Assembly (NCBI GenBank): GCA_964537315.1
Contig: CAZIAP010000003.1
Span: forward strand, 463-64,462
Reading direction: 5' to 3'
Length of the DNA stretch: 64,000 nt
Source: an uncultured Gammaproteobacteria bacterium
GTDB taxonomy: Bacteria; Patescibacteriota; Microgenomatia; Levybacterales; GWA1-39-11
The translations under genes and the position numbers were made by a program. Each line of letters starts with the position of its first letter. Within the stretch, counting starts at the first letter, position 1. Below the pieces are notes generated by a model that saw only the letters and a list, made by a program, of their open reading frames with translations, had not been told where the DNA came from and ran no database searches. This document shows positions 19,183-64,000 of this stretch, one piece after another.

Positions 19183-19299
19183 CTGATTTTTCCCTTCGTT
19201 TGGTTAAGGTTAATTCCGACTCTTGGCAGAGTGCATCAGAAGATGCGCTTTTCCAAGTACCGGAGTTGGCAGCCTGAGAGAGTTTTCCGACTGCCAAAT

Positions 19300-37374: not shown

Positions 37375-40300
37375 TTAGTTGACTATTAGGAAGTTAAATC
37401 TAATATCTTGGTTTACAACATTTTCTATTTCAACTGTAAAGTGCTGTCCTGCTACTTGATTCTTGAGATATACTTGCTGGCCACCTGTTGATCCTACAGG
37501 TGTAATAAAGATTAATGAGTCTTCGGTTACATTATCGTTATTTACCCGTACCTGTGTTTGATAAGCTTTGAGTGTGACAAGTCCTGCTGATCCTGAGGCA
37601 TTCACAGTCGTATTATTAACTACTTCTGGTGCTGTGGCTTCAACTCCAATTCTTTCAAAGTTAGCTGACCCTGATACGTTCAGTACATCATTTACACCTT
37701 TGATTACACTGGTTACGAGTTCTCCTTCAACAGAGACATTTTTTTCAAAGGCGACATTTTCAGTGAATCTAACAGTACCGTCAGTGTTGAAAGTAACAGC
37801 CCCAGCCATAATTGAGACAGGTTGTTGCTTGAGAGGTTGAATCTCAAGCGTATCTGACAGAGTATTGATAGAGTTTGAGTTAATGACAAGTTCACCTGCA
37901 CCGATAGCAAGGGTTTCTGTAATGGCCGCTTCTCGAAGGGTAGTGGTACCCAGAACTGTTAAGTCTGCATTAATGGTTGCAAAATCAAAGTCTGCAAAAT
38001 CAGCCTCAATACCTGCACCTAGGTCAAAGAAAGCACTACTTGAGGCAGTCAGACCAGAGATATTCTCAACGATAAGGTTTTTAACTGTCAAGGTTTCTAT
38101 ACTTCCTTCATCAGCAATAATCTCAGGAGTGGTTACCGAACCTGCAAACTTTGCATTACCTGACAAGTCTACCGAGAAGAGAGCTCCTTGAGTTGATGTT
38201 TTATCCATGATTGAGAGCTTAGAATCACCAGTAATTACCTTAAAGTCAGACATGGCAATTTCATCAGTCGTAATTTTACCTGCAGCAAGCGTATTGTTGA
38301 TAGTTAGACTATCGCTAGACAAGAATGAAGCATTAATATTTTCAAATAGTCCTGATGTGGCTACCAGGTTTGTAGCAAAGATATCTTCACTCTCTATCTT
38401 GCCTGATTTGATATTTGCAGCAAATAGATCAGCATATGCTTTGCTGTCTTGCGCTATATCTCCGTTGTCGTTTATGACTAGCCAGTCATTTCCATTCTGA
38501 GCAATCTGAAGTTCGCCATTTGCGGCAAACTGAATATTAGGATCATGCCAACCAGGGTTCAAATAAACTTTAATTGTTCCGCAAACAGCATCAGTAGATT
38601 CACTTGCTGGACAGACGTGAGTATTTCCAATGCCGGTTGATGGATTAAAGTCAGATAATGCACGACCTACTATTTCACCTGCATTTATTGCTTTGGCCCC
38701 ATATCCTCGTATTTGTGATGCAGTAATTGGATCCCCAGCTTTAATTGGTCCATTTATATTACTTACTTTTACCGGTAATTGTCCGGTAAGACCAACTAGT
38801 ACGTTGGTTAGTTCATAATTCGAGTCACAATTGAGGTCCTCTGAATCGCAGACAGGTCCATTTCCAACGAACCCAGGAGTATCAGATACAATACCTACAA
38901 TTGCGTTTGAACCATTTGCGCTTCTAACTGTATTGCTTTTGGTTGAGTCAACCATGACAATTTCACCAACTGTTGGTTTTGGTTCAAGTTGGTTAAATAG
39001 GAAGTACTCTGCATAATCTCCACCTGAAGTCGAGTAAACAACCGCGTTAGTTGCTCCTTGAATTTTTCCGGTTATGGTTGTTCCACCTGAGCTTCCTCCG
39101 AATGAGATTAAGTAATTATTAGCTCCCCATCCAGCAGTGCCTCTTCCATTAGAAACGAGTATTCCTCTACTAGTGGTGCCTGTGTTTGTATTATGAAATT
39201 GCGCAACATATTGAGTGGTTGTAGAAAATGATGCCTCAACGTGCAGCTGTCTTCCTGTCGGTAGAATAGAAGCTCCTATTGCGACAGGTTCAAGAAGGAA
39301 AATGCTGCTTGAATTTACTGTCATTCTCGTCGCTCCTGCTGCAGAAAAGACCATGCCGTTTCCGGAAGATCGAGAAATTCCGGTGTTTGATCCAGATGAA
39401 AAGCTGAGACCTGGTAGAGAAGATGTTCCATCTGCAGCGAATATTCGCCTATTTGAATCAATTACTGTGGTTCCTCCAGATTGGAGGCTGCCTGATACAA
39501 TGTTGAATGAATCGCCTGACGCAAGCGCCAGTGTATTTACGCCTGATCTGTAAAGTTCAACATCGGTGCCAAATCCTATACCGCCTGCGGCAGTTGTGTG
39601 ACTAGCAAGCTCAAGTATATGCCCAGGTGCTGTTGTGCCGATTCCAAGGTTGCCAACTCCGGTAAGTCTCATATTCTCTACAGCACCACCGGACTCAAAA
39701 ATAAGATCGTTTGCTGAGTTACTGCCAAATCCTGCACGAGTTCCTTTACTATCAGGTTCAAAAAATCCTATCATAAAATCACGATTTATACGCATATCGC
39801 CTTCGACGTGTAGTTTATACTGCGGAACATTGGTTCCAATTCCGATATTCCCTCCACTATTAATAAAGAGTGAATTCGTTGAGGCTCCTTCTTCAATACT
39901 GAATGGACCAGTAGCGTTGCTGATATCCCAAAAGCCGATAGTTCCGTTTGTATTGGTAAAGAGCGACCATTGATTTGTGCTACTTCCGTCTTCTAACCAT
40001 AGCTCAGTATTTCCTGATCCAGATTTCAGGTGTAGTTTTCCTCCAGGGGAAGTTGTGCCAATACCAACGTTACCTGATGTGGGGTTGAGAATAAGGTTAG
40101 CAGCTGCGTTGATGGTTAAGTCACCTGATGAGTTACCAATTGTTGAGTTTGTTCCACCAACCGAAAGTCTAGCAGTAGGGTTGGTTGTGCCGATACCAAG
40201 ATTACCGCTTGTTGTGAGAGATAGTAATGGGTTAAGAGATCCAGCATGTCCATTGAGGCCGATAAAGAAGTTATCGTTTGCTGTGTTGATTCCCAGTGCA

Positions 40301-43300
40301 TAATCAAGGTTTGTGCTACATCCATCGCCGGAAGTACATTGTACGTGTAATGAGTCAGGACCAAGATATAGATTCCTCCATCGGGCAGATCCCGAAGCAC
40401 CCAAATCGTAGGTATCGTCTGCTCCAGGCAGGAAGTGACCACCAACATTAAAGAATGCTCTTTGAACCCCTGCAGTAGCAAAATTTAAAGTATCTGACCC
40501 GTCTCCATAGATACCGGTATTAGTGTCAGATGAGAATGAAAATGCCGGTGTTGCGGCGCTACCATTTGCGGCAGTAAATAATCTGTCTGATGTTATAGTG
40601 TTGACTCCACCCATTTGAAGAGAACCGGAGACAATATTTAATGAATCACCTGATGCAAGCGCCAGTGTATTAGAGCCTGATCTATACAGTTCAACATCAG
40701 TACCAAATGCTATACCGCCTGCAGCAGTTGTGTGATCAGCCAATTCAAGTCTGTGGGTAGCAGCAGTTGTACCGATTCCAATATTTCCAGTAGATCCGTT
40801 AACAAAGAAATTGCCTGACCCAAAGTTAATATTATTGCTCCCCATTGATACATTCCAGTCAGCATCTAATGTCATGGTATCTGCAAGTTCTGAAAAATCC
40901 AGACAGTCTGTACAGCTGAAATCGCTTGCAGTTAGTGTGCCTCCTGTCAACTCAAGTCCTGCTTGAGTGCCAATTGTAAGTTTTCCATCACTATCAACGG
41001 TAAATGACGCGTATTTACTTGCATCTGTGTGAGTTAGTCGAAGCTGTTCTGATGTTGATAATATTTCAGTCTTTGCATCAGGAGTGGTCGTACCCATACC
41101 GATATTACCTGCTGAGTTAATAAGTAGCCTTACGCTGCCATTACCGAACGGATCAGCGTCATCAGAAGCAGATGTGTAGAAGAAGAGATCAGTTGGTACG
41201 TTATTTGAAGATACGGCACCGTTTACCAAAGCACCAAAGCCTGCATTATGTCTATACACTCCACCTTCGTAGTTCTTAAAGAAGAATATTCCGTTATAGT
41301 CGCCGTTTTGGACACTTGCAGGAGAGGTAAGTGTACCTCTGCTTTTTCTGAAATTGAATTGAGCAGCATGAGCAGCATTGCTGTGCTGGTCTAAACTGAT
41401 ACCTCTATTCCCGGAAGTACCGTCTGTAGTGACATGCAGCTGAGCGACAGGAGCTGTTGTGCCAATACCTACTTGACCGAGTGAGGTATCTACGTATAGT
41501 TGGTTAGTGTTGATAGCAAAATCTCCGGCACCTGATAAGTTAATATTTAGGTTATTGCCTGCGTTTGGAGTAATTGAAAGAGCTCCGGACGAAGTAAGCG
41601 CATTGCCTGAAAGATTAAGTGTTCCTGCAATATCATTTGACGTACCATTAAAGTCAATATTTCCTCCTACAGTTAATGTACTATCAAAACTTACTGATCC
41701 GTTTACACCAAGAGTAGAGCCAAGTGTTGTTGCACCTGTTATATTTGTTGTTCCAGCGACCGAAAGTTTGTGTGATGGGTTAGTAATTCCAATACCAAGA
41801 TTTCCTGTTCCAAGGTTAAAGAAGGCATCTTGATTAGTAACGCCCGGTAGTTTGATAGTTGCACTTGATGTAGCTGTGCTCCCTATAAGTACATCAAGTG
41901 TAGTATTAGTCAAGTGCAGTGCGCCATTTGACTGATCCCACCAATTCGTAAATGTTCCTTCACCGCCGCAGTCTCCCCAGGTGTATGTGCCATCACCATT
42001 TGATCGAAGACACTCATCAACACCGCCTGTTGTAGCAAGCTGAGTAAGTACTCCGGAGCCATCAGTGTAGAGTAGACCCCCATTGGTAGTAAAGTCAGGA
42101 AGAGTAATAGATGAGCCATGGATTGTGATGGCATCTGCACCATCACCTAAATTGAGTGCACCATTTGCAGTCAACGTACCATTAAAGGTTGAAGTACCAC
42201 TAGTAGTAAGATTTCCCCCATCTGCAATTACAAATACATCATCTACATCAAACCCACCATTTGCATTGATGTTGGCTGCAAATGTAGAAATTCCGTCTAC
42301 TTGAAGGGTAGACCCTAGTGTAGCTGCACCTGAGATGTTGGTTGCGCCGTTAACATTGAGTTTATATGATCCTGGAGAAGTTGTGCCGATTCCAAAGTTG
42401 CCAGCAGCGTCAACAACCGACAACGCATTGCCTGAAGCATCTTGCCACTCTTGTAAGTTGTGAGTTTGAGATGTGTGACCTTGTAAGGCAAGAATTAATG
42501 AGCTGTTTTGATCATTTCGTACTCTGAGGGATGCATCTGAAGCTCCACTTCCGGAAACAAATGTAGGGCTATTTGTGTTGCCTCTTGCTCCGATAATTTC
42601 AATTCCATGGTAACCGTAGATTTGTGTACTTCCTCCGTATAGGCTTTGGAATCCATTGTAAGGATCCCCGAACTGTACTCTAACTGCTTCACCGGATGAC
42701 AAGTTGTAAAATCCTATTGCACGTGGCGCACTAGTTGTGCTTCCATCCGTATTAATTCCCATGTCACCTGCCACGGTAAGCGTACTTCCAATTGTTGTTA
42801 ATCCTGTTATATTTGTTGTTCCATCTACTGAAAGTTTGTGAGACGGATTGGTAATTCCGATACCTACGTTGCCAGCAAAATAACCGCTACCATCGTAGCC
42901 TACATTAAAGACCTCAGTTCCGTCACTTTGTACGCCGCTGAATAAGTCTGCACCTGCACCCCCACCTTTTGCGCGAAGTACAGCTTCAAATGCAGCCGAA
43001 GCACCTGCGTCGGTGGTAAATTCATGCGCACCAAATGCACCCCCTCCAAGGCCTCCCCGCACACTATATCCAAGTCTTTTATTCGCTATATCATATTTTA
43101 TTAAACTGCCTGAGTTATCTCCTATATTTAAATCTCCAATTTGGATTCCGGTGGTACCAGGCCCAGTATTAGAAATTACAAGTGACTTTTTATTTGTAAC
43201 GTTACCTTGGTCTATAGTTACACTTCCTGCTACGTGGAGCTTGTTGCTTGGAGCAGTTGTCCCAATTCCTACATTTCCTGTTCCACTTATATTGAAATCA

Positions 43301-46300
43301 AACCCACCATTTGCAATAGTAGTGTTTTCGGTTAAGGTACCACCGAGTCCAATGGTATTAGTTGATCTAGTTAGTCCGTTATTGAAGGTAAGAGGAACTT
43401 CGTAATCTGTTCCAGCTTCAAGAGGTAATTGATAGTCAGTACCGGCAACAGCGTTTGAAAGAACACCGCTTGCATCAGACATCACCAATCCAGAACCAAG
43501 TCCTGAGACAGTAAGTCCAGCAAAGGTTGGAGTAGAAGCTGTAGTTAAGTGTTGTCCAGTGTTGAATGCAAGTTGAGCATCACCAATAGAGTCTGCGTTG
43601 ATAGCAAGGGTAATTCCAGCATTTTCGCTTCCAGAACCAGTTACACTGATTTGGGTGTTACCTGTAATGGTAGCCACATAGTTACCTGTGGTGTGTTGTC
43701 CAAGAGCGATCAGATCGTTTAGAGTAGTAGCTCCGGTACCACCATTAGCTATAGGCAAGATTCCGCTCACATCAGCTGCAAGGTCAATTGCAGTTAATGT
43801 GATCTCCTGATCGGAGAGGGTTAGATAATCATAACTCCCTGCTAAAGTAACTGGATTATGAGAAGCTACTGTGATAGCTGTATCAAGATCTGCTAATACT
43901 CCTTGGACAGTTGTTGCGGAGCTGTTAGTAAATTCGTCAAACACACCCACCAATGATGCACCGCTGGTTATATTTGATACCCCCACATCTTCAAGGCCAA
44001 TTGTACCTAATGTTAGAGATCCGAATGTCACACCAGAAGCTGTAGTTAAGTGTTGTCCGGTATTATATTCAAGTTGAGCATCACCAATAGAGTTTGCGTT
44101 GATTGCAAGCGTGATTCCTGCGTTTTCACTTCCTGAGCCTGATACACTGATTTGAGTATTACCTGTAATGGTAGCCACATAGTTACCTGTGGTGTGTTGT
44201 CCAAGGGTAATTAGATCATTAAGCGTGTTGGCTCCGGTACCGCCATTGGCAACAGGAAGAATTCCTGTGACTTCAGATGTAAGGTCAATATCTGTTCCTA
44301 AGGTTGTAGAAAGAGATGATCCTGAAAGGGTAAGTCCCGTACCTGTGAAGTCAGTTATTGTATCTCCTCCTACATTGATTCCATTGCTAAATGTTGCAAG
44401 ACCAGTAACGCCAAGTGTTGATCCAAGTGATGTTGCACCAGTTGCATTAACTGTTCCAACTACTGATAAATTATGTGCAGGGTTGGTAATACCAATTCCT
44501 ACATTTCCGTCATTTTGTATTACAAAACGAGTAGTGCCTGATGCGCTTGCGGTGAGAATGGCTTGATCTCCTGTTTCATTAAATATCGCCAGTGCTTTAC
44601 CTGGAACATAGCCATTCACGTTAAACGCACCAAGATTTGTCATCGGAGCGGCTTGATTTACTCCAAGAGAAAAATGTCCCATGTCTCCGACTATTAAACG
44701 ATTGGTTGACGAGCTATTTCTGACAAAGAAGCCAGTTGTGCCTGATGCTCCTCCTAAATGGTTTATGATACTAGTATTTGCATTTAATATTAGTCCGGAA
44801 AGCGTCATTTCCATGTGTCCTGAAGATACTCCGTCATGAAAGTCTATTCTATCTGTAAGATATAGGGAATTCCATCGTCCTCCTGTACTGCCTAAATCAT
44901 ATACAGCGTCAGTTGCAGGACCAATATCTCCTTCTACTTGCAATCTAAATGCAGTTGGAGTAGAAATTCCGATACCCACATTGCCAGTACCAGAGAAGGT
45001 AAAGTTGTTACCGTCGAGATCAAGGTCTGTACTGCTTGTGAGTGTACCACCGAGTCCGATTGAGTTAGTTGATCGAGTTAGTCCATTACCGAAAGTAAGA
45101 GGAACTTCGTAATCTGTTCCAGCCTCAAGTGGTAACTGGTAGTCAGTACCGGCAACAGCATTAGAAAGAACTCCATTTGCATCAGACTTAACAAGACCTG
45201 TGGAGAGACCTGATACAGTAAGTCCAGCAAAGGTTGGAGTAGAAGCTGTAGTTAAGTGTTGTCCAGTGTTGAATGCAAGTTGAGCATCACCAATAGAGTC
45301 TGCGTTGATAGCAAGGGTAATTCCAGCATTTTCGCTTCCAGAACCAGTTACACTGATTTGGGTGTTACCTGTAATGGTAGCCACATAATTACCAGTGGTA
45401 TGAGTACCAAGAGTAATCAGATCGTTTAGAGTAGTAGCTCCCGTACCGCCATTGGCAACAGGAAGAATTCCTGATACGTCAGTTGCAAGATCAATTGCGT
45501 TTAAAGTAATTTGTTGACCAGATAGCGTAAGGTAATCATAGCTACCTGCAAGCGTTACGGGGTCATGACTTGCACCTGAAATCGCTGAGTCTAAATCAGC
45601 TAGAGCTTGTTGAACAGTGGTAGCATCTGAATTGGTAAACTCATCATATACACCGATTAGTGACGCACCTGAGGTGATATTTGAAGCACCTGCATCTTCT
45701 AATCCAACACTACCAAGAGTAAGTGATCCGAAAGTTACGTCTGAGGAGGTTGCAATACTCTGAGGAAGAGAAAGAGTAATATTACCGGTTGCGCCAGAAA
45801 CAGAGACCTGGTTTGCAGTGCCTGCAAGAGAGAGTACTCCTGAGTTAGCAATAGTAGTACCTGTGATAGTAATACCTGCACCTTCTGCAAGGGTAATGTT
45901 GCCTGTTGCACCTTGGAAGGAGAGAACACCTGTGTTTGTAATCGTGTTTCCTGTTCGGTTTAATCCGGTTGAGAAAGTAAGCGGCACTTCATAGTCTGTA
46001 CCAGCCTCAAGTGGTAACTGGTAGTCAGTACCAGCAACAGCAACTGCCAGTTCACCTGTAGGAGAGATAGCTTTCACTAGTCCTCCAGCGTTTAGACCAG
46101 AGAGAGTCATACCTGAAAAAGTAGGAGTAGATGTAGTTGCAATACTTTGTGGTAGAGACAGGGTAATATCTCCACCTATAACTCTACCAGTACCACCAGT
46201 AACCGATATCTGATCAGCAGTACCGATTACATCTGAGAGCGATGTGACGCCTGTTCCACCGCTTGCAACAGGTAGAGTTCCTTCAACTTCAGATTCCAGG

Positions 46301-52300: not shown

Positions 52301-55300
52301 CCTGTTCGGTTTAATCCGGTTGAGAAAGTAAGCGGCACTTCATAGTCTGTACCAGCCTCAAGTGGTAACTGGTAGTCAGTACCAGCAACAGCAACTGCCA
52401 GTTCACCGGTAGGAGCTATAGCTTTAACTAGCCCCCCAGCGTTTAGACCAGAGAGAGTTATACCTGAAAAAGTAGGAGTAGATGTAATCGCAATATTTTG
52501 TGGTAGAGACAGGGTAATATCTCCGCCTATAACTCTACCAGTACCACCAGTAACCGATATCTGATCAGCAGTACCGATTACGTCTGAGAGCGATGTGACA
52601 CCCGTACCACCACTTGCAACAGGTAGAGTACCTTCAACTTCAGATTCCAGGTCAACCGTTGTACCAAGAGTGGTAGAGATAACTCCACCTGAGATTTGAA
52701 GACCTGTACCCACAAAGTCAGAGATTGTGTCGCCATTCACCGTAAGTGTTGTGAGTGTTAAGGCACTAAATGTTGGACTAGAGGTAGTGGTTAGGTGTTG
52801 TCCAGTATCAAACTCTAACTGATCGTTACCAATTGAGTTAGCATTTATTGCAAGAGTAATACCTGCATTTTCACTCCCTGATCCTGTCACACCAATCTGA
52901 GTGTTGCCTGTAATGGTTGCCACATAGTTACCGGTGGTGTGAGTAGCGAGTTGGATCAGATCATTTAGAGTATTTGCACCAGTTCCACCGCTTGCTATAG
53001 GTAGGATTCCGGTTACGTCTGTAGTCAGATCAATAGCATTCAAAGTTATCTCTTGATCAGATAATGTTAGGTAATCATATGCTCCTGCTAATGTTACTGG
53101 ATCGTGTGAGGCTCCTGTGATGGATGCATCAAGATCTTTCAAAACTCCCTGAACAGTGGTTGCAGAGCTATTGGCAAACTCATCATACACACCAACAAGA
53201 GACGCACCTGAGGTGATATTTGAAGTACCTACATCTTCAAGGCCAATCGTGCCTAATGTTAAAGATCCGAATGTTACATCTGCAGCTGTATCTATATTTT
53301 GAGGTAGAGAAAGAGTAATATTACCAGTTGCGCCAGAAACAGAGACCTGGTTTGCAGTTCCTGCAAGGGAAAGTACTCCTGAGTTAGCAATGGTGGTACC
53401 TGTGATAGTAATTCCTGCACCTTCTGCAAGGGTAATGTTGCCTGTTGCACCTTGGAAGGAGAGAACACCTGTGTTTGTAATCGTGTTTCCTGTTCGGTTT
53501 AATCCGGTTGAGAAAGTAAGCGGCACTTCATAGTCTGTACCAGCCTCAAGTGGTAACTGGTAGTCAGTACCAGCAACAGCAACTGCCAGTTCACCTGTAG
53601 GAGAGATAGCTTTCACTAGTCCTCCAGCGTTTAGACCAGAGAGAGTCATACCTGAAAAAGTAGGAGTAGATGTAGTTGCAATACTTTGTGGTAGAGACAG
53701 GGTAATATCTCCGCCAATAACACGTCCAGTACCACCACTTACTGAGATTTGATTTGCTGTACCAACTACATCAGACAGGGAAGTAACTCCAGTACCACCG
53801 CTACCAACAGGAAGTATTCCTTCAACTTCAGATTCCAGATCAACCGTTGTGCCAAGAGTGGTAGAGATAACTCCACCTGTAATTTGAAGACCTGTACCCA
53901 CAAAATCTGTAATAGTATCACCATTGATACTAAGAGTAGAAAGAGTTAGAGCTGAGAAAGTAGGAGTAGAGGTGGTGGTCAAGTGCTGACCCGTATCAAA
54001 CTCTAATTGATCGTTGCCAATTGAGTTGGCATTAATAGATAAGGTAACTAACGCATTCTCTGTACCTGAGTTTCCAACAGTGATTTGGTCACTGCCTGTA
54101 ATGGTTGCCACATAATTACCTGTGGTGTGAGTTGCAAGCTGGATCAGATCATTTAGAGTATTTGCGCCAGTTCCACCATTAGCTACTGGTAAGATTCCGG
54201 TCACGTCAGTGGCAAGATCAATTGCGTTAAGGGTAATTTGTTGATCTGATAAACTAAGATAGTTGTATGCTCCTGCTAATGTTACTGGATCGTGTGAAGC
54301 ACCTGTTATAGAAGCATCAAGATCTTTCAAAACTCCCTGAACAGTGGTTGCAGAGCTATTGGCAAACTCATCATATACACCAATGAGTGAAGCTCCTGAA
54401 TTAAGGTTTGAAGTACCTGCATCTGCAAGACCGATACTTCCAATAGATAATGAGGAAACAGATAGATTAGCAAAGGTCACATCTGACGTTGTAGTCAAAT
54501 GTTGTCCTGTATCAAAAGCAAGTTGGTCGTTACCAATAGAGTTTGCGTTGATGGCAAGAGTAACAAGTGCATTTTCAGAACCTGAGTTTCCAACTGTAAT
54601 CTGATCGTTTCCGGTGATTGTGGCAACATAATTACCGGTTGTGTGTTGCCCAAGAGCTATTAAGTTATCAAGAGTTATTGAACCGGTACCACCACTTGAA
54701 ACAGGGAGAACTCCCGTGACTTCAGAGGTTAAGTCTATGGATTGTCCTAGTAGAGATACCTCTCCACTTACATCAGGAAAGGTGTATGTTCTGTCAGATG
54801 AAAGATCGTCAACATCAAATATACCAAAATATGTATCTCCAACAGACTCAAGAATTCGTAGAGTTGAAGCTGAGTTATTTAATACGATGTCAAAGGCTCC
54901 TGTTTGGTTCCAGTCTTCGGTGAGTGAGCCTAAAGCAATAGTACCATCTTCTGTGATTGGTCCGCCTGTAAGTCCGCTTCCAGTATTGATTTGAGTAACT
55001 GTACCGCCTGAATTAGTGTCAACGGAGGAAATGGTTATTGTGTTGTTAGCGCCAAAGGAGACTGAGGTTCCACCACTTCCTGCAAACCGTATCGAGTCAC
55101 TATTGGAAGTTGCTGAAAACTGAGTAGTACCTGATGCGTTTGCAATATCTTTGAAAATGTTCTGACTTGAACCTTTATCAGTATTTACAACTGAGTCATC
55201 AATTCTACTCAGTCCATCACTGAAAGTAAGAGGAACTTCATAGTCAGTGCCTGCAGTAGCAATAGACAGCTGTCCCGTTGAGTCTATTGCCTTAACTAGA

Positions 55301-58239
55301 CCTCCTGCTGAGAGACCTGCAAATGTAATTGTGCCTCCGACAGAGAGGTTTCCTGATGTTCCACCATCAGTTAAAGAAAGTAGAGTGTTGCTACCGTCTG
55401 TTATAGTAAGTGACCCTGTGTTAGCAATTGATATAGCTGTTGCAGGGTTATTGAAAGCAAGTGGAGTAGCAGAAGTAAATGTCCAGTTTCCACTTACTGT
55501 CTCATTTAGATTTTTTCGTGCAATTGAGGAATTTATATAATCAATAGCAATATTTATTTCACCTGCTGGAGATTCAGTAAGAGTAAAGTCAGTGCCATTA
55601 AAATCTAAAGTGTCAGCGCTATCGCTGACTGTAACATCTCCTTCTTGTACGGTTACTACCGCGCTGCTCAGTCCACCAACATCTGGAGAACACTCCCAGA
55701 GCTGAGAAACCGCATTCCATTTAAGAATATACTCGTTATCACATCCTCGTAGTAGAGAGAGTCCGGCAGCAGTAAGTTCGAGTCCGGAGTTAGATGACTG
55801 TGTAGAGGTACTTCCTGATGTAGTAAGTTCTATGCCAAGTGTCAGATTAGAACCTTCTGAACCACCATCCGCACCTGTTAAACCTAGTCCACTGGTAATT
55901 GATGCAACGTAGTTTCCATTCGTATGCGTTCCAAGTGTAATTAAGTCATTCAGTGTGTTTGCACCCGTACCGCCGCTTGCAACAGGTAATATTCCCGTTA
56001 TCTCAGTTGGTCCTCCCGCAAGATTTAGCGCGCTTGAGGTAAGAACACCATTGCTATCTGTATGAACGATGCCTGATGTAAATCCGTTGAGTTTAATATT
56101 TCCTGTTGTTACGGATCCTAACGTAAGGTCTATAGAATTTGTCGTAGCCAATATACCATCTGCAGTAATATACATAGACCCTGATCCATCAGAAATAGTT
56201 GCTCGCGGAGTTCCGCTTGATACGTTTGTTATAGCAAATGCTGCACTGGCAGTAGAGGAACCTCCTATTGCAAAGTCAACAGAAGTATCTTTAGGACTGA
56301 TAAGACCTGTACTCTGATCCCAGAAATTACTTCCTCCTACCGCTCCTGCAACATCTGTCCATGAAAGCTGTCCAGCGCCATTTGTTGTTAACACATATCC
56401 AGTTGATCCATCAGCGGATGGCCATGTGTAAGGCACATCATTTACTCCGAAAGATGTTGTTCCGGTAATTCGGACATTTCCACCGACTGTTAGTGTCTGT
56501 GAAGGGTTGGATGTACCGATGCCTACACGATTGTTTGCTGTGTCAACAAAAAAGGTAGAACCATCGATACTGACTGAATAGTTTGAGGAAGACGGTGATA
56601 TAGAAAGGTTCGCGTCGAGAGTAAGAGTATCTCTTAAATCAGAAAAATCTAAACAATCTATACAGGAAAACGATGCTGCTGTTAGAGAAAGACCAGGAAA
56701 GTTAATCTGAGATCCTGTTGCTGTAACATTTAAATCTCCGGTTGATGTAGTCTGAAAAGTAACATATGCGCTTCCATCATAAGCAAGTCTCAACTGGGGG
56801 ACAGCTGTAGACTGTGACTCAATCTTTGCTCCGGGGGTGGTTGTCCCAATTCCAACAAGATCACTACCCGTTTCAAGTCGTACCACAGATCCATCATCTA
56901 CCCAACCTGGAACTGCTCCGGTACTTGTAATAGTAACTGTTTTTGTACTTGTGTTGGTTGAAAGTCCTATTCCAGAACCAGCTACAAATCTTAGGATATC
57001 TGTGTTTGATGAGGCATTTAACTCAGTTCCATTAACAGTGATTGTTTTGAAAATATTCTGAGCCGATCCAGTGTCTGAGTTTGATATAGTAAGGCCATCG
57101 ATTGATATACCTGAACCTGCTGAGAGTGTAACTGCTCCAGTTTGTCCTTGGAGAGTTAATACACTGTCGGGAACTGTAACAGAGATGACTGGATTCTGTC
57201 CTCCAGTTACAGATACGTTGTCTCCGGCGGTGATAGAATATATCAAGTTTGAAGCTGTAACCGTACCTGCTCCGACATCAATATTTCCTCCCTCAACCAA
57301 TAAGTCTGCATCCTGTAGAGTGACAGTGTTTGTAAATAAGGATGCACCTTCTACATTTATGTCTCCTCTGAAAGTGGTTGCTCCTTTGAATATTGCATCG
57401 ATGTTGAATGCAAGAGATGCTTTTAGGTTTGTTGTTTGTTCAGCAAGTACTTCCTGGGGAGAGTTGACAGTCTCAGAAGTATAAAGGTTACTAGAGGAGT
57501 TGCTATTTTTCGAGTACGTTATATACGTAGCAGCTGAAGCTGTGATTACAAATAGCAATAATGCAGATATAACAGCCGGTTTCTGAGCTCTCTTAAAGTT
57601 TGGTAAAGAAAATAAGTTAATAGAAAAAGATGGGGACTTTAGGTGTGAAAAGTTAGATTTTTGTTCTGGTATTTGAGCCTCCCTATATGCATATTGCTCG
57701 ATTTGACTCTGCTGGGAAGTATCTGGGGTAAGTGGAGTAATATGGAGTTTTCTAACTTTATCAGGATTGTTGACAAAGTCCATTGGGGTCAAAATTTGGC
57801 TGTGATTCTCGCTAGTTGGTGTATTAGGTTGTAGAATTGATGAGGACGAGCTTTTCTGATTGCTTACTGTAGGACTCTGTGTACGTAGTTTTTTTTTAGC
57901 TTCCAATGTTTTAATATACTTTTGAACTACTTGAGGATCGTACATTCTCTCACCACGTGAGTTCCGTGTAGAAGGAAGAATATTTTTCTGCTCTAATCTT
58001 CTTAGAGTCGAGGGTGAAATGCCTAGCTTGGATGCAGTTTGTGAAATGGTTAAAGGAAACGAAGCTTTTAAAGCTTTTAACTGCTCAACGTCAAAATGTC
58101 TGTTTTTCCCATCAATTCTGATGGCTTGGATTTTTCCAGCTTTATCCCATCTACGAATTGTGTCAATTGATACACCAAGAAACTTTGCAGCTTCTCCAAT
58201 ACTCATGTATTTTTTATGTTCGGGCAGGTGTCTTGGCAT
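37375..58239 (-). CDS. giant repetitive cell-surface protein 2 (6954 aa) with N-terminal 2x MerR/excisionase-type HTH and single TM anchor
   Basis: It is a continuous ORF. The HTH motifs are 'MSIGEAAKFLGVSIDTIRRWDKAGKIQAIRIDGKNRHF' and 'LTISQTASKLGISPSTLRRLEQKNIL'. The TM is 'AVISALLLFVITASAATYI' at ~aa 225-245. About 6700 aa of repeats follow ('ILPVANGGTGANTLNDLIQLATHTTGNYVATITG' occurs more than 12 times). Confidence 0.85.
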   Translation of the reverse strand: MPRHLPEHKKYMSIGEAAKFLGVSIDTIRRWDKAGKIQAIRIDGKNRHFDVEQLKALKASFPLTISQTASKLGISPSTLRRLEQKNILPSTRNSRGERMYDPQVVQKYIKTLEAKKKLRTQSPTVSNQKSSSSSILQPNTPTSENHSQILTPMDFVNNPDKVRKLHITPLTPDTSQQSQIEQYAYREAQIPEQKSNFSHLKSPSFSINLFSLPNFKRAQKPAVISALLLFVITASAATYITYSKNSNSSSNLYTSETVNSPQEVLAEQTTNLKASLAFNIDAIFKGATTFRGDINVEGASLFTNTVTLQDADLLVEGGNIDVGAGTVTASNLIYSITAGDNVSVTGGQNPVISVTVPDSVLTLQGQTGAVTLSAGSGISIDGLTISNSDTGSAQNIFKTITVNGTELNASSNTDILRFVAGSGIGLSTNTSTKTVTITSTGAVPGWVDDGSVVRLETGSDLVGIGTTTPGAKIESQSTAVPQLRLAYDGSAYVTFQTTSTGDLNVTATGSQINFPGLSLTAASFSCIDCLDFSDLRDTLTLDANLSISPSSSNYSVSIDGSTFFVDTANNRVGIGTSNPSQTLTVGGNVRITGTTSFGVNDVPYTWPSADGSTGYVLTTNGAGQLSWTDVAGAVGGSNFWDQSTGLISPKDTSVDFAIGGSSTASAAFAITNVSSGTPRATISDGSGSMYITADGILATTNSIDLTLGSVTTGNIKLNGFTSGIVHTDSNGVLTSSALNLAGGPTEITGILPVASGGTGANTLNDLITLGTHTNGNYVASITSGLGLTGADGGSEGSNLTLGIELTTSGSTSTQSSNSGLELTAAGLSLLRGCDNEYILKWNAVSQLWECSPDVGGLSSAVVTVQEGDVTVSDSADTLDFNGTDFTLTESPAGEINIAIDYINSSIARKNLNETVSGNWTFTSATPLAFNNPATAISIANTGSLTITDGSNTLLSLTDGGTSGNLSVGGTITFAGLSAGGLVKAIDSTGQLSIATAGTDYEVPLTFSDGLSRIDDSVVNTDKGSSQNIFKDIANASGTTQFSATSNSDSIRFAGSGGTSVSFGANNTITISSVDTNSGGTVTQINTGSGLTGGPITEDGTIALGSLTEDWNQTGAFDIVLNNSASTLRILESVGDTYFGIFDVDDLSSDRTYTFPDVSGEVSLLGQSIDLTSEVTGVLPVSSGGTGSITLDNLIALGQHTTGNYVATITGNDQITVGNSGSENALVTLAINANSIGNDQLAFDTGQHLTTTSDVTFANLSVSSLSIGSIGLADAGTSNLNSGASLIGVYDEFANSSATTVQGVLKDLDASITGASHDPVTLAGAYNYLSLSDQQITLNAIDLATDVTGILPVANGGTGANTLNDLIQLATHTTGNYVATITGSDQITVGNSGTENALVTLSINANSIGNDQLEFDTGQHLTTTSTPTFSALTLSTLSINGDTITDFVGTGLQITGGVISTTLGTTVDLESEVEGILPVGSGGTGVTSLSDVVGTANQISVSGGTGRVIGGDITLSLPQSIATTSTPTFSGMTLSGLNAGGLVKAISPTGELAVAVAGTDYQLPLEAGTDYEVPLTFSTGLNRTGNTITNTGVLSFQGATGNITLAEGAGITITGTTIANSGVLSLAGTANQVSVSGATGNITLSLPQNIDTAADVTFGSLTLGTIGLEDVGTSNITSGASLVGVYDEFANSSATTVQGVLKDLDASITGASHDPVTLAGAYDYLTLSDQEITLNAIDLTTDVTGILPIASGGTGANTLNDLIQLATHTTGNYVATITGNTQIGVTGSGSENAGITLAINANSIGNDQLEFDTGQHLTTTSSPTFSALTLTTLTVNGDTISDFVGTGLQISGGVISTTLGTTVDLESEVEGTLPVASGGTGVTSLSDVIGTADQISVTGGTGRVIGGDITLSLPQNIAITSTPTFSGITLSGLNAGGLVKAIAPTGELAVAVAGTDYQLPLEAGTDYEVPLTFSTGLNRTGNTITNTGVLSFQGATGNITLAEGAGITITGTTIANSGVLSLAGTANQVSVSGATGNITISLPQDIATTSNVTFGSLTLGTIGLEDVGTSNITSGASLVGVYDEFSNSSGVTVQQVLADLDATLTSVTHDPVTLAGSYNYLTLNNQVITLGQVDISDDTNLTAGTNLTLTDDTLSVDDVFLLNTGDTGNGNYVFTGTMDLTGTILTGASPLIFEGTTADGFQTAFTITDPTATRTITFPDRSGEVSLLGQTIDLTTEVTGILPIASGGTGANTLNDLIQLATHTTGNYVATITGNTQISVTGSGSENAAITLAINANSIGNDQLEFDTGQALTSVSSPTFSGLTLTTLSINGDTISDFVGTGLQISGGVISTTLGTTVDLESEVEGTLPVASGGTGATSFTAGGILYGTGTSPIGASAAGIAGQVLISGGAGAPSWINSSAVGTNYWQYAQGALSSINVSDDLLIGGSATNSALIRFGGTANTDSFFNTGGNLGIGTTAPGSKLDVQGGIRLGDDNDPDNILNTTATATAPSGYLYWGNRQICDTTGNCAGTGGGLTGSGTQNYIAKFSSSGSVGDSSIFDNGNIGIGTTTPNYLLEVAGTTNITGDATLGSTLAVSGLATFSSGIAVNGDTITDFVGTGLQISGGVISTTLGTDIDLASEVTGILPATHGGTGLNASTVTAGQLLIGNGTNGNFDLANLTPGEGISITNGDGSITIAGEDASTTNKGIASFNDAYFSVAAGAVSIDDIYLLNTGDTGNGNYVFTGTMDLTGTVLASASPLVFEGTTANGFQTVFAITDPTATRTITFPDRSGEVSLLGQTIGNSELENDSITVTAGTGLSGGGTVALGGTITLNNTGVTSFQSLTGDVTLTPGDGIDITGTTITNTGLLSLNGATGVLTLANASEAGGTITIADATADGTTKGIAAFNSTNFSAASGVINTIQDIATTSSPEFTGLTLSGNAAINGGNLTSTASTFNLLNSDVTTLNLGGTATINLAGGYGSTGVTINTSGDIQANGDLTVDGTTTFGGVSYTWPGADAGVSGYVLSSNGSGGLSWIDIGTATTQFWSLKNGAIYPINTTLDFFIGGSSTESANFAFINSNSGTPTASVSAGLAGASYLTADGTLATTAMQNLNFGTNETGDILFNNAGNVGIGTSNPVSALDVAGGIRLGTDSNANNILNTSQASGAPSGFLYWGDRTICDTSGNCAGVGGGITGAGTTNFVAKFTDTGAIGSSSIFDNGNVGIGTTTPTNGFKLDVSGGIRGTDGLTITTGTISLPAGQIDNLELANDSVTISAGTGLSGGGTVTLGSTISINNDGVLSFQGQTGDVTLTAGTGIDITGTTISNTGVTSLTGTVNQVNVSGATGNVTLSLPQDIHTAATPTFAGITINDDSITDFVGTGLQLNIGVLSTTLGTDVDLTSEVTGILPVANGGTGANTLDNLITLGQHTTGNYVATITGNTQISVTGSGSENAGITLAINANSIGNDQLAFDTGQHLTTTSDVTFANLSVSSLSIGSIGLEDVGVSNITSGASLVGIFDEFTHSNATTIQSVLADFDAAITGAEHSPVTLAGSYDYLTLSDQQITLNAIDLTTDVTGILPVANGGTGANTLNDLIQLATHTTGNYVATITGNTQISVTGSGSENAGITLAINANSIGNDQLAFDTGQHLTTISSPTFAGLTISGLSTGLVKSDANGVLSNAVAGTDYEVPLTFSTGLNRTGNTITNTGVLSFQGATGNVTLAEGAGITITGTTIANSGVLSLAGTANQVSVSGATGSITLSLPQNIDSAADVTFGSLTLGSIGLEDIGTSNITSGASLIGVYDEFTHSSSTNVQDVLADFDAAITGAEHSPVTLAGSYDYLTLSDQQITLNAIDLTTDVTGILPVANGGTGANTLNDLIQLATHTTGNYVATITGNDQITVGNSGTENALVTLSIAANSIGNDQLTFDTGQHLTTVSSPTFSGLTLTTLSINGDTITDFVGNGLKITGGVISTTLGTTVDLESEVEGTLPVASGGTGVTSLSDVIGTADQISVTGGTGRVIGGDITLSLPQSIATTSTPTFSGMTLSGLNAGGLVKAISPTGELAVAVAGTDYQLPLEAGTDYEVPLTFSTGLNRTGNTITNTGVLSFQGATGNITLAEGAGITITGTTIANSGVLSLAGTANQVSVSGATGNITLSLPQSIATSSDVTFGSLTLGSVGLEDAGASNITSGASLIGVYDEFTNSDATTVQQALADLDSAISGASHDPVTLAGSYDYLTLSGQQITLNAIDLATDVSGILPVANGGTGATTLNDLITLGTHTTGNYVATITGNTQISVTGSGSENAGITLAINADSIGDAQLAFNTGQHLTTASTPTFAGLTVSGLSTGLVKSDANGVLSNAVAGTDYQLPLEAGTDYEVPLTFGNGLTRSTNSIGLGGTLTSSTDLDLDGNNFTFSGTGNVGIGISTPTAFRLQVEGDIGPATDAVYDLGSTGGRWNSLYLTDRIDFHDGVSSGHMEMTLSGLILNANTSIINHLGGASGTTGFFVRNSSSTNRLIVGDMGHFSLGVNQAAPMTNLGAFNVNGYVPGKALAIFNETGDQAILTASASGTTRFVIQNDGNVGIGITNPAHNLSVVGTVNATGATSLGSTLGVTGLATFSNGINVGGDTITDFTGTGLTLSGSSLSTTLGTDIDLTSEVTGILPVANGGTGANTLNDLITLGQHTTGNYVATITGNTQISVSGSGSENAGITLAINANSIGDAQLEYNTGQHLTTASGVTFGSLTLGTIGLEDVGVSNITSGASLVGVFDEFTNSSATTVQGVLADLDTAITVASHNPVTLAGSYDYLTLSDQEITLTAIDLAADVSGILPIANGGTGATTLNDLIALGQHTTGNYVATITGNTQISVTGSGSENAGITLAINADSIGDAQLAFNTGQHLTTASTPTFAGLTVSGLGSGLVMSDASGVLSNAVAGTDYQLPLEAGTDYEVPLTFNNGLTRSTNTIGLGGTLTENTTIANGGFDFNISGTGNVGIGTTAPSNKLHVAGSVTIDQGNVTNKKSLVISNTGPGTTGIQIGDLNIGDNSGSLIKYDIANKRLGYSVRGGLGGGAFGAHEFTTDAGASAAFEAVLRAKGGGAGADLFSGVQSDGTEVFNVGYDGSGYFAGNVGIGITNPSHKLSVDGTTNITGLTTIGSTLTVAGDMGINTDGSTTSAPRAIGFYNLSSGEAVRVQFGDPYNGFQSLYGGSTQIYGYHGIEIIGARGNTNSPTFVSGSGASDASLRVRNDQNSSLILALQGHTSQTHNLQEWQDASGNALSVVDAAGNFGIGTTSPGSYKLNVNGATNISGAATLGSTLQVDGISTFAANINANGGFDVDDVFVIADGGNLTTSGTSTFNGTLTANGALNLGDGADAITIHGSSITLPDFTTNGGLLYTDGSGVLTQLATTGGVDECLRSNGDGTYTWGDCGGEGTFTNWWDQSNGALHLTNTTLDVLIGSTATSSATIKLPGVTNQDAFFNLGTGNLGIGITNPSHKLSVAGTTNITGATTLGSTLGVNGSVSFDSTLTVGGNIDFNGTSNDIAGTLNLSGNALTSSGALSITPNAGNNLNINLSGAGDFAINTNQLYVDTSLGQVGIGTTAPVAQLHVTTDGTSGNRGISLDQHSNAAHAAQFNFRKSRGTLTSPASVQNGDYNGIFFFKNYEGGVYRHNAGFGALVNGAVSSNNVPTDLFFYTSASDDADPFGNGSVRLLINSAGNIGMGTTTPDAKTEILSTSEQLRLTHTDASKYASFTVDSDGKLTIGTQAGLELTGGTLTASDFSCTDCLDFSELADTMTLDADWNVSMGSNNINFGSGNFFVNGSTGNIGIGTTAATHRLELADHTTAAGGIAFGTDVELYRSGSNTLALASGDSLNIVSGSLQMGGVNTITSDRLFTAANGSAATPAFSFSSDTNTGIYGDGSDTLNFATAGVQRAFFNVGGHFLPGADDTYDLGASGSARWRNLYLGPDSLHVQCTSGDGCSTNLDYALGINTANDNFFIGLNGHAGSLNPLLSLTTSGNLGIGTTNPTARLSVGGTNSTIGNSSGDLTINAAANLILNPTSGNVGIGTTSPGGKLHLKSGSGNTELWLEDGSSTNQWSLFTNTNGTIGFWDISNATGPFSIEEGASTNSLFINSGGNIGIGTNVPQYKLHVEGDMRINRDFMIGFFEPDSKGTRAGFGSNSANDLIFESGGAVENMRLTGVGNLGIGTTAPGHILELASHTTAAGGIGFGTDVELYRSGVNTLALASGDSFNIVSGSLQSGGTTVIDSNRRIFAADGTSSLPGLSFSSGSNTGISRSSGNGMVFSAAGATRMTVNSSSIFLLEPVAIGASILPTGRQLHVEASFSTTTQYVAQFHNTNTGTTSRGILVSNGRGTAGWGANNYLISFGGSSGGTTITGKIQGATNAVVYSTSGGDYAEYFLFNQLEPKPTVGEIVMVDSTKSNTVRSANGSNAIVGIVSDTPGFVGNGPVCDSEDLNCDSNYELTNVLVGLTGQLPVKVSNINGPIKAGDPITASQIRGYGAKAINAGEIVGRALSDFNPSTGIGNTHVCPASESTDAVCGTIKVYLNPGWHDPNIQFAANGELQIAQNGNDWLVINDNGDIAQDSKAYADLFAANIKSGKIESEDIFATNLVATSGLFENINASFLSSDSLTINNTLAAGKITTDEIAMSDFKVITGDSKLSIMDKTSTQGALFSVDLSGNAKFAGSVTTPEIIADEGSIETLTVKNLIVENISGLTASSSAFFDLGAGIEADFADFDFATINADLTVLGTTTLREAAITETLAIGAGELVINSNSINTLSDTLEIQPLKQQPVSIMAGAVTFNTDGTVRFTENVAFEKNVSVEGELVTSVIKGVNDVLNVSGSANFERIGVEATAPEVVNNTTVNASGSAGLVTLKAYQTQVRVNNDNVTEDSLIFITPVGSTGGQQVYLKNQVAGQHFTVEIENVVNQDIRFNFLIVN
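37757..38411. repeat. ~655-bp near-identical segment shared with 28775-29428
   Basis: See the paired repeat at 28775-29428. It encodes an identical ~215-aa C-terminal module in both giant proteins. Confidence 0.85.
43300..54700. repeat. in-frame near-identical super-repeats (~1.2 kb units) inside giant gene 2
   Basis: 'gcggcacttcatagtctgtaccagcctcaagtggtaactggtagtcagtaccagcaacagcaactgccagttcacc' recurs at ~45981, ~52332 and ~53520. The spacing is 1188 bp. Related copies lie at ~43390, ~45090 and ~47130. Boundaries are approximate. Confidence 0.7.
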
Positions 58240-58512
58240 GATAAAAGGTATTGATGATCTTTTAGTGCATTTCTGCTTTAAATATCTATGCTTTGATCAA
58301 CCAATACCTATATATTTATTGAACCATTGTTTTCACAAAAGTGTCAAGTATACAAATAGATGAATGAGCATGTTTTGTACACACTTCGAGGCTGAGGAGG
58401 AATGTAAGAAAACTGATCTGGTGACAATTGTTGCATAGATCAACAAAAAAATAAAAATGTGTATTTTAAATCACTAAATTTTAGCGTGAAAATCAACCAA
58501 AATATTGTATGA

Positions 58513-59439
<927 letters not shown>

Positions 59440-59451
59440 AGACTGTTATTT

Positions 59452-60342: not shown

Positions 60343-60374
60343 TTGTTTTACTAAATTGAAAGAAAAACATTACT

Positions 60375-60866
60375 ATGAATCTGCCCATATTAACTCACAT
60401 TTATACGCAAGAAGACAAAGTGTATATTTTGGATAAGCTGGATAAGCTAGGTCAGGCGACATATTCTGTGAAAACATCATTTGAGTCTGAGGTTTATAAT
60501 GCTTTTTCATTTTTTTTGGCTGAATCTCTCTTAGAGTCAGCTAAATCACAAAATGTTTCCCTAACTGATCCTCAAGCGGTTCAAGGATTTTTACAGGAAG
60601 TTCAGGCAGCTATTAACGCTTTACCTAAAGCGACAGTTCGGTTGGCATTTACCCCTAGTAATGACTTGTTAAGAGATATTGCGAAACGTTTTGATATATT
60701 AATTGGCGGCAAAATAATAGTTGACTATGTTGTTGATCCAGACCTAATAGGAGGGGTGATAGTTGAAGTAAATGGAAAACATCTTGACTATTCATTGAAG
60801 AAGCTTATTCGTGAAAAGCTAAGTTTCGAGATAGGGAAGGAAAAGGAAGCAGGGGTATCAATATAA
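60375..60866 (+). CDS. atpH: F-type ATP synthase subunit delta (OSCP)
   Basis: The C-terminal motif 'VDPDLIGGVIVEVNGKHLDYSLKKLIREKL' is typical of delta. Length is 163 aa. Confidence 0.8.
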   Translation: MNLPILTHIYTQEDKVYILDKLDKLGQATYSVKTSFESEVYNAFSFFLAESLLESAKSQNVSLTDPQAVQGFLQEVQAAINALPKATVRLAFTPSNDLLRDIAKRFDILIGGKIIVDYVVDPDLIGGVIVEVNGKHLDYSLKKLIREKLSFEIGKEKEAGVSI

Positions 60867-60896
60867 TATCTTGTCCTTACCTATTACAAAATTTAT

Positions 60897-62471: not shown

Positions 62472-62474
62472 ACT

Positions 62475-63359: not shown

Positions 63360-63395
63360 GTTAGAGGGAGAGAATACTTGAACCTTTATTATTAA

Positions 63396-64000
<605 letters not shown>

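Follow-up and report, generated by a model that had tools for sequence, protein, structure and literature searches.

The window, as we call the whole 64,000-nucleotide (nt) stretch of contig CAZIAP010000003.1 analysed here, carries on its minus strand a single gene that joins a tandem pair of helix-turn-helix (HTH) domains of the MerR/excisionase type, through a linker and one transmembrane (TM) helix, to an extracellular fibre of ~6700 amino acids (aa). One genuine gene encodes both the HTH pair and the fibre of this protein, hereafter the giant, which belongs to a large, apparently undescribed family of the Patescibacteria (candidate phyla radiation) with an ancient and common architecture; genes of this family are usually preceded by a specific 28-bp palindrome. 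From this architecture and this cis-element, both of which are solid, we infer a function: the giant may be a membrane-tethered, self-regulating DNA-binding protein, in which the HTH pair would bind the palindrome and the outer part would serve as a tail-fibre-like adhesin, a reading towards which we lean with some caution. What is new is the palindrome itself, and the way a phage-like giant fibre is combined with the idea of a membrane-bound one-component regulator.

A single reading frame joins the HTH pair to the fibre

An earlier note on this DNA, made from the letters alone, had described an uninterrupted 20.9-kb open reading frame (ORF), and the 6954 codons indeed form one open frame, with a stop codon solely at its end (feature coordinates are collected in Table 1). 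The translation starts MPRHLPEHKKYMSIGEAAKFLGVSIDTIRRW...ISQTASKLGISPSTLRRL, and this start (MPRHLPEHKKY...) agrees with the family consensus MxxxLPxxKKLVSISEAAK. The two consecutive HTHs that the note placed in the first ~110 aa are matched in Pfam and NCBIfam with scores exceeding the curated cut-offs, while hydropathy and composition bear out the ~100-aa linker, the one TM helix and the ~6700-aa fibre, the topology being predicted. A Kyte-Doolittle scan of the whole protein found no second TM segment, and there is no signal peptide ahead of the HTHs. The TM helix has a basic flank, NFKRAQKP, on its N-terminal side, and because lysine and arginine residues precede the helix the N-terminus is predicted to be cytoplasmic. 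The ectodomain contains 14.5% threonine, 14% glycine and 10% serine. The paralogue next to the giant (28431..36782, minus strand, 2783 aa) lacks the HTH region, as the note had said: it begins with a 38-aa tail, then a TM helix, its N-terminus aligns with the giant starting at giant aa 179, and the C-termini of the two proteins are 44-56% identical. Calling the giant one of the largest bacterial proteins was an overstatement, since bacterial proteins far longer than 6954 aa are described (bioRxiv 10.1101/2023.11.21.568195). By exact-sequence look-ups, the 6954-aa sequence is absent from the protein collection and the paralogue has no gene record.

The comparisons that follow draw on loci to which we gave handles from L001 onwards. 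They include 32 loci from a GTDB scan (one genome per species), which were retrieved via the peptide VSIDT[IA]RRW and in which both HTHs were matched by a tandem-HTH profile. A fusion or frameshift artefact was raised in the note itself: a small HTH gene would have been falsely joined to a fibre gene in assembly or annotation. A related reading is that an excisionase and a tail fibre were left behind together by a prophage. The excisionase-like character of the HTHs, the phage-type modules of the fibre, an IS200-like ORF 11 kb off and the absence of the exact sequence from the protein collection would fit such an origin. However, Logan contig L001 (run SRR7082976, 13 kb), a second assembly, is 100% identical to window 54367-64000, an overlap that takes in the HTHs, the linker, the TM helix and the first ~1050 aa of the fibre; the orthologue in L002 is 64% identical and colinear across aa 1-939; and in 31 of the 32 GTDB loci the HTH pair leads in the same frame, without an intervening stop, to one TM helix (aa ~150-290), the remaining locus reaching its contig edge after 290 aa. 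In none of the loci examined was the HTH pair found as a separate gene. As to a prophage, phage records give a single 42-aa HTH match and nothing for the C-terminal domain, no integrase, attachment site or phage context was seen around the gene, and synteny with an ATP synthase operon is kept in five genomes; with neither protein end closely matched in phage records and this synteny conserved, we ruled out a prophage origin. Since the second assembly, the orthologue, the 32 loci and ~190 protein clusters agree, the fusion is an old, conserved architecture; we reject the artefact, to which we would assign hardly any probability.

The HTH-TM module is common in Patescibacteria

A profile search of 1.84 billion cluster representatives (50% identity clusters) yielded 193 proteins at E<=1e-30, and nearly all of the best 150 matches listed have the tandem HTH at residues ~1-116. 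Of the 112 members retrieved that are 300 aa or longer, 104 have a TM helix at aa 120-320; 42 measure 1000 aa or more, 18 measure 2000 aa or more, and the maximum is 4863 aa. Complete ORFs in the GTDB loci comprise 284-355, 1077 or 2491-2920 aa, and ORFs running off contigs reach at least 3447 aa. The ectodomains differ widely; among 85 members of 280-1300 aa, 23 carry SH3_3, two collagen and one LytR_C, and the others no Pfam domain. Long members have fibre modules in common with the giant, and a Peptidase_G2 region is present in the complete proteins of L003, L018 and L026. Judging from these sequences, the HTH-linker-TM module is the constant part of the family, and the ectodomain is interchangeable.

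By record title, 20 of the 32 GTDB loci come from Patescibacteria lineages (Levyi-, Davies-, Woese- and Andersenbacteria, Microgenomates, Saccharibacteria), 11 from 'uncultured Gammaproteobacteria' and one from 'Eisenbacteria'. The 11 loci titled 'uncultured Gammaproteobacteria bacterium', from TPA metagenome-assembled genomes in GenBank, are L002, L007, L008, L016, L019, L020, L023, L024, L025, L028 and L031. These titles are doubtful, because synteny with Levyibacteriota loci is seen in at least L002 and L020, and the family otherwise occurs in Patescibacteria-titled records. The relatives' database names are 'MerR family DNA-binding transcriptional regulator' or 'helix-turn-helix domain-containing protein', and we found no description of the HTH-TM-fibre family or of the palindrome in the full-text literature. 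The earlier assessment of the fusion as highly unusual therefore holds relative to described biology, for which no paper was found, but not within Patescibacteria, where the architecture is common (193 clusters).

The number of HTHs varies among relatives, some having three or eight ahead of the TM helix, and other relatives are soluble arrays of up to ~20 HTH units without a TM helix. Relatives of such variable HTH number are the proteins P0028 (623 aa), P0029 (1015 aa), P0140 and P0163 and the genes in L033 (from 10000) and L077 (from 5385).

Two excisionase-like winged HTH units

In the first 110 aa, Pfam MerR is matched over two stretches at E=9.6e-22 (77 bits, cut-off 28.2), with MerR_1 (2.5e-18) and HTH_17 (2.4e-15) likewise above their cut-offs, and NCBIfam TIGR01764, 'excisionase family DNA-binding', is matched with 54.1 bits against a cut-off of 28.8. 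A sequence profile of the HTH region matches MerR, RacA, BldC and Xis in the Protein Data Bank (PDB). The AlphaFold2 (AF2) model of aa 1-125, made from a 14-sequence alignment, has a mean predicted local distance difference test score (pLDDT) of 82 and consists of two helix-turn-helix-wing units, after which a helix spans aa 102-120; the full order of elements is HTH1, a 10-residue helix, HTH2, a ~19-residue helix, a disordered linker and the TM helix. Each HTH unit superposes on BldC (6amk, 6ama) and on mycobacteriophage Xis (4j2n) with a template modelling score normalised to the target structure of 0.79-0.83 and a root-mean-square deviation of 1.5-2.7 A, and the units superpose also on the DNA-binding domains of RacA, MerR, NmlR, BmrR and CueR. 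R29, R30, R47, R80, R81 and R98, wing arginines included, are invariant in 85 diverse family members.

The ectodomain is tail-fibre-like

PHROG tail-fibre families match the fibre, and its sole Pfam match is Peptidase_G2 (PF11962, IMC autoproteolytic; aa 6375-6460, 30 bits against a cut-off of 25). This match marks a phage-type intramolecular (auto)chaperone-like domain near the C-terminus. Its motif DYAEYF (39001-39018) starts at aa 6408, the point corresponding to the first residues of phi29 gp12-type domains. A profile of this domain, built from the giant, the paralogue and eight homologues, finds D4, the chaperone domain of tailspike Dpo31 (28nb, E=2.7e-6), as well as the autochaperone of the phi29 preneck appendage (3gqh, 4.3e-5), and both alignments start at chain residues 1-5. 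A PDB sequence search with the last 954 aa gave nothing significant.

Much of the fibre consists of repeats of ~396 aa. Their identity reaches 94% at the protein level and 87-91% at the nucleotide level, and the longest stretch of DNA that copies share exactly measures 299 nt. Because third-codon positions are far more diverged than the protein, the repeats are under purifying selection and are not recent assembly duplications. The independent Logan contig breaks at window 54367, where the repeat zone begins, and the repeat number, hence the exact length of 6954 aa, is uncertain. 'Generic repeat adhesin' fits the ectodomain less well than a tail-fibre-like protein with a phage autochaperone domain. 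As far as such likenesses go, the fibre probably trimerises in the manner of a tail fibre, and its make-up suggests adhesion to a host cell.

A 28-bp palindrome precedes genes of the family

The element associated with the family, placed in most of its genes between promoter and start codon, is CCTATGCATTGGTTAACCAATGCATAGG, 28 bp long and a perfect palindrome in its consensus form. In a k-mer census of 300 nt upstream, CTATGCA or its complement is present ahead of 26 of the 33 family genes, where 1.95 would be expected (binomial p~3e-26). The same heptamer precedes 15 of 290 other genes in the same loci, about half of which are divergent neighbours sharing the family gene's intergenic region. 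Copies of the full palindrome with at most eight mismatches were found in about 20 of the 32 genome loci, all of them intergenic (521 kb scanned), while only one of 1170 shuffled controls reached nine mismatches and none did better. The palindrome mostly ends 5-8 nt before the ATG, its terminal AGG at the Shine-Dalgarno position. The association also emerges from the opposite direction: a scan of 241 million metagenome records with the palindrome only gave eight loci, in six of which a tandem-HTH gene starts 6-10 nt (once 106 nt) downstream of it.

In the window, the sole copy with at most eight mismatches is the one at 58285-58312, in the giant's own 5' region. An upstream alignment of the giant's gene with four syntenic loci contains an invariant ACTTGACA and a -10-like block, with the palindromic block just downstream; the putative promoter made up of these invariant blocks goes uncalled by a consensus scan because its -10 hexamer is non-canonical. 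CTATGCA is scarce in the window (three copies against ~9 expected), and one of the three lies upstream of the giant's gene. The HTH-less paralogue has no palindrome ahead of it.

Some palindromes lie apart from family genes. The remaining two loci of the palindrome-only scan hold two copies each, near an HTH_17/PIN operon, a tRNA gene and an M16 peptidase/prepilin peptidase operon; such copies are at 2619-2646 and 4391-4418 in L078, and at 2679-2706 and 4921-4948 in L080 (tRNA at 5083-5153). In L004, two extra palindromes (8500-8527 and 8858-8885) flank tRNAs at 8394-8465 and 8997-9069 (minus strand). Together, the palindromes apart from family genes may mark a small regulon.

In several loci the palindrome-bearing intergenic region is common to the family gene and a divergent cassette of a ~95-aa excisionase-type HTH protein and a ~142-aa PIN-like protein, which resembles a toxin-antitoxin pair. 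This HTH_17/PIN cassette lies on the minus strand in L008 (6306-7027), L009 (9025-9836), L015 (9174-9876), L016 (9094-9863), L018 (9153-9870) and L028 (9139-9838), and related small HTH_17 genes occur in L078 (2794-3111) and L079. As an alternative palindrome binder the pair was set aside: it is found in six GTDB loci and not in the window. Four Saccharimonadales loci (L012, L022, L027, L030) share an element CTA(T/G)GCATAAGCTTTCTTAACAG about -60 to -110 nt from the start, and the HTH2 recognition helix of Saccharimonadales differs slightly (STVRRL). We also considered co-variation of recognition helix and element type and dropped it, as the pairing of STVRRL with a different 5' element in Saccharimonadales is only a lineage-confounded hint.

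DNA site or RNA hairpin

The palindrome could also act as RNA, a 5'-untranslated-region hairpin hiding the AGG and the start and lowering the translation of costly membrane proteins, in which case the target or partner of the HTH pair would be unrelated to it. The consensus read as RNA forms a 12-bp stem that would hide the AGG, in many loci the 3' arm with the AGG ends 5-8 nt before the ATG, and perfect palindromes fold at -22 kcal/mol (z=-6.6). The window itself keeps a stem ending 6 nt from the start although its compact palindrome has decayed (z=-3.4). Covariation speaks for RNA at best marginally: in 25 sense-oriented copies the share of paired cells is 79.7%, which compares with 77.6% after column shuffling and is reached by 26 of 500 shuffles, and pair changes on both sides are slightly enriched (16-18 of 500 shuffles reach the observed values).

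On the other hand, 20% of cells are unpaired, C.A mismatches outnumber G.U at pair 7-22 (nine against four), L013-type copies fold no better than shuffles (z=-0.5), and no known RNA family in Rfam matches the 5' region. It is the sequence, and not pairing alone, that is conserved across deep lineages, and copies stand beside tRNA genes and at other intergenic spots where a hairpin at a ribosome-binding site would be senseless. Because the half-sites are conserved across deep lineages, copies adjoin tRNA genes and wobble pairs are not preferred, we favour a protein-bound DNA site; the RNA hairpin as the palindrome's main role was rejected on its marginal covariation and pairing and is kept as a rival that we consider quite unlikely.

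A membrane-tethered regulator and its alternatives

In our preferred reading, a membrane-tethered and self-regulating DNA-binding protein, the HTH pair would bind the 28-bp palindrome between promoter and start codon, overlapping the likely ribosome-binding AGG. A half-site of 14 bp could offer room for HTH1 and HTH2 in neighbouring major grooves, so that two chains would occupy one palindrome, with HTH1 and HTH2 of each chain on the outer (CCTATGCA) and inner (TTGGTT) sub-sites. Acting from the membrane, the giant would repress its own gene or tether it. As the HTHs leave the ribosome before any other part, feedback in cis could set in minutes ahead of complete translation of the 20.9-kb message; repression or tethering of the own locus might accompany translation and export of the remaining 20 kb. 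The cells are ~0.2-0.3 um across, so the nucleoid is always within reach of the membrane. The earlier suggestion of a membrane-tethered transcription factor coupled to surface contact is thus backed in its architecture, to which the palindrome adds support, while DNA binding, regulation and coupling to surface contact are points on which we can offer only a proposal.

Several observations weigh against this reading. In the window the palindrome is degenerate (eight mismatches; ten in the orthologue L002) and its distance to the start codon is 45 nt instead of 6. In the window and L002 the half-sites are ~37 nt apart, the long-range RNA stem between them reaching z=-3.4 in the window and being not significant in L002, and the window's enlarged-loop stem suits an RNA element better than a dimer operator. 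Four of the ten palindromes from the palindrome-only scan do not adjoin family genes, Saccharimonadales members are without the full palindrome and have the other conserved 5' element instead, and another regulator could bind the palindrome. On the protein side, the mutual orientation of HTH1 and HTH2 is unreliable in the AF2 model (predicted template modelling score 0.53), and the invariance of HTH1 within the GTDB set follows from the set having been built through VSIDT[IA]RRW. As to the fibre, ~390 aa separate the autochaperone-like domain from the C-terminal end, the AF2 monomer model of this domain is mediocre (pLDDT 64), and a Foldseek search with the C-terminal domain gave only weak matches, to phage capsid decoration proteins.

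Alternatively, the HTH pair might anchor its own locus or the nucleoid at the fibre base as a chromosome-membrane tether, similar to RacA or Noc, perhaps keeping the gene beside the translocon so that a very long protein could be exported during its translation. RacA is indeed among the best sequence and fold matches; relatives with three, eight or more HTHs before the TM helix, or with no TM helix (P0028, L033, L077, P0029), are more typical of DNA-organising proteins, and an HTH-TM module common to very different ectodomains resembles a generic anchor. However, RacA and Noc use many dispersed sites, whereas one recognisable site is present in 64 kb here (with at most eight mismatches, some other loci have 1-3 copies per 10-20 kb), and a site at the protein's own promoter and 5' untranslated region is the pattern of an autoregulator; we regard the tether as unlikely. 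A bolder proposal, which we would put forward only as speculation, is contact-to-chromosome signalling: binding of, or tension on, a host-directed fibre, or the SH3 ectodomain of small paralogues, would alter the HTH pair and switch a small palindrome regulon. Such a change might come about through clustering, through dissociation from the operator, or through proteolysis that sets the HTHs free, as in CadC or Notch, and the regulon would comprise the own gene and, judging from the tRNA-adjacent copies, possibly growth-related genes. If this were true, genome-reduced Patescibacteria, which have few classical signalling systems, would gain a direct read-out of host attachment.

Genomic neighbourhood

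An F-type ATP synthase operon (delta, alpha, gamma) runs divergently from the giant's gene, and this arrangement is conserved in L002, L013, L014 and L020. Synteny and best matches make a member of the Levyibacteriota or of another Microgenomates lineage the most likely source organism; the source contig measures 154 kb at NCBI. The first ORF of the operon, at window 58570-59439 (plus strand; 289 aa by ORF, 266 aa as called), has counterparts in L002 (8743-9528), L013 (5793-6578), L014 (8882-9667) and L020 (8881-9666), five genomes in all. It has a hydrophobic N-terminal segment; its middle corresponds by homology to giant aa ~6490-6531 and paralogue aa 2305-2398 in the autochaperone-like region (Peptidase_G2 E=0.07); and its C-terminus forms a two-helix hairpin with a GRNPLAGR loop and no acidic residue in helix 2, which weakly resembles the F-type c subunit (PF00137, E=0.026, below the cut-off).

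A small single-pass TM protein is encoded directly downstream of the family gene in seven loci (six complete genes): L003 (8173-8703), L012 (13296-13964), L018 (17775-18452), L022 (9882-10562), L026 (9232-9678), L030 (8133-8897) and L033 (8968-9678); in L025 (8291-8746) it lies nearby on the opposite strand. Its motif is LPxxExPTxATVxD...QPFFxNAQNGDKVLxF...AILYRP. We considered it as a conserved partner gene and discarded it, as the window contains no counterpart of it.

Directly downstream of the HTH-less paralogue, the window contains a 526-aa ORF without a significant domain (26762-28342, minus strand), and a 219-aa ORF with a partial match to an IS200-like Y1 transposase (E=1.7e-6) lies at 26027-26686 (minus strand). 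The region 12722-20308 has a G+C content of 0.45-0.48 against ~0.38 in its flanks; its large minus-strand ORFs are overlapped by ORFs of the opposite strand, give only weak He_PIG Ig-like and DUF11 matches and probably encode further surface proteins. The window begins with the 3' end of a 23S rRNA (1-911) and a 5S rRNA (1110-1222), and in L008 a 23S rRNA (1-2920) and a 5S rRNA (4154-4270) lie a few kb upstream of the family gene.

Table 1. Features of the giant's gene and its 5' region (window coordinates)
Feature	Coordinates	Strand	Remarks
Single coding sequence, 6954 codons: two HTHs, linker, TM helix, giant fibre	37375..58239	-	
HTH domain 1, aa 11-58, MerR/HTH_17/excisionase type, recognition helix VSIDTIRRW	58066..58209	-	
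HTH domain 2, aa 63-110, same fold as domain 1, recognition helix ISPSTLRRL	57910..58053	-	
Predicted cytoplasmic low-complexity linker, aa 121-219, S/Q/P-rich, ~100 aa	57583..57879	-	
Single TM helix, aa 220-242	57514..57582	-	Kyte-Doolittle mean 2.15
Predicted extracellular G/T/S/N-rich fibre, aa 243-6954, ~6700 aa	37378..57513	-	PHROG tail-fibre matches; modules common to other family members
High-identity repeat zone, ~396 aa (1188 nt) per repeat, aa ~1100-5010	43210..54942	-	
Phage-type intramolecular (auto)chaperone-like domain, aa ~6396-6560	38560..39054	-	
Putative promoter: -35 TTGACA (58342-58347), 18-nt spacer, TG-extended -10 TTCAAT (58318-58323)	58318..58347	-	Invariant alignment blocks
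Degenerate palindrome copy TATAGGTATTGGTTGATCAAAGCATAGA, 8 mismatches, directly downstream of -10	58285..58312	-	
Inverted partial copy GATCATCAATACCT, can pair with 58297-58312, ends 6 nt before the start codon	58246..58259	-	RNA fold z=-3.4
Isolated half-site CTATGCA at -199	58432..58438	-	

Implications

Patescibacteria make up a large share of bacterial diversity and live attached to other cells. To our knowledge, very few regulators can be recognised in them, and their means of perceiving a host and reacting to it are poorly understood. With its direct link between a surface fibre or cell-wall-binding domain and a DNA-binding module, this widespread family is a concrete, testable candidate for a host-sensing link, and the palindrome is a searchable motif for defining the regulon in uncultured genomes. 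The family also illustrates the use of phage-type fibre assembly modules in cellular giant proteins, and how the label 'MerR family transcriptional regulator' conceals surface proteins of several thousand residues.

Comparison with known systems

The closest parallel in overall layout is offered by the ToxR-like regulators (ToxR, CadC, TcpP, PsaE), with which the giant shares the order of a DNA-binding domain at the cytoplasmic N-terminus, one TM helix and a C-terminal domain outside the cytoplasm. These regulators hold input and output in one polypeptide and establish that membrane-anchored DNA binding works (PMC5430869); activation of CadC is possible by proteolytic cleavage (PMC11484849). 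However, their DNA-binding domain is an OmpR/PhoB-type winged helix, whereas the giant has tandem MerR/excisionase winged HTHs and no Trans_reg_C match in the Pfam scan. In the giant's family the outer domain can be a fibre of 2000-7000 aa instead of a small sensor, the giant's host is a monoderm-like Patescibacterium, and the putative site lies downstream of the -10, unlike in ToxR-like systems.

Canonical MerR regulators have an N-terminal winged HTH of the MerR type, as does the giant, but their long antiparallel coiled-coil dimerisation helix is not present in it, and the Pfam scan found no C-terminal MerR effector-binding domain. While the canonical MerR operator sits inside a 19-20 bp spacer between -35 and -10, in the giant's putative promoter the -35 and -10 are 18 nt apart, and the palindrome comes after the -10. 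With the coiled coil, the effector domain and the spacer operator all missing, the giant therefore has MerR-type domains without being a MerR-type regulator. In the excisionase/BldC class, as in the giant's units, the fold is a minimal ~50-aa MerR-like winged HTH without dimerisation helix or effector domain. BldC and Xis are small soluble proteins of a class acting in recombination directionality or development, and multimerise head-to-tail on direct repeats; the units of the giant, in contrast, are covalently linked and membrane-anchored, and the DNA element associated with its family is an inverted repeat.

RacA uses a MerR-like winged HTH to fix DNA to the cell envelope. It reaches the membrane via DivIVA, has a coiled coil and uses many binding sites, whereas the chain of the giant supplies its own anchor, the TM helix, and the sites seen amount to one per ~64 kb. 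TraN of the Enterococcus plasmid pIP501 presumably holds two MerR/excisionase-like HTH units as an internal dimer. One TraN chain (4pm3/4p0z) spans both HTH units of our model, a weak match with a template modelling score of 0.34; TraN binds double-stranded DNA according to its PDB titles and, unlike the giant, is a soluble component of a conjugation system without TM helix or ectodomain. Finally, phage tail fibres and tailspikes such as phi29 gp12 and Dpo31 have in common with the giant the conserved SGG-DYAEYF...VGIVS...GN domain and G/T/S/N-rich repeats, whereas the giant is cellular and membrane-anchored, is 5-10 times longer and continues for ~390 aa after the chaperone-like domain.

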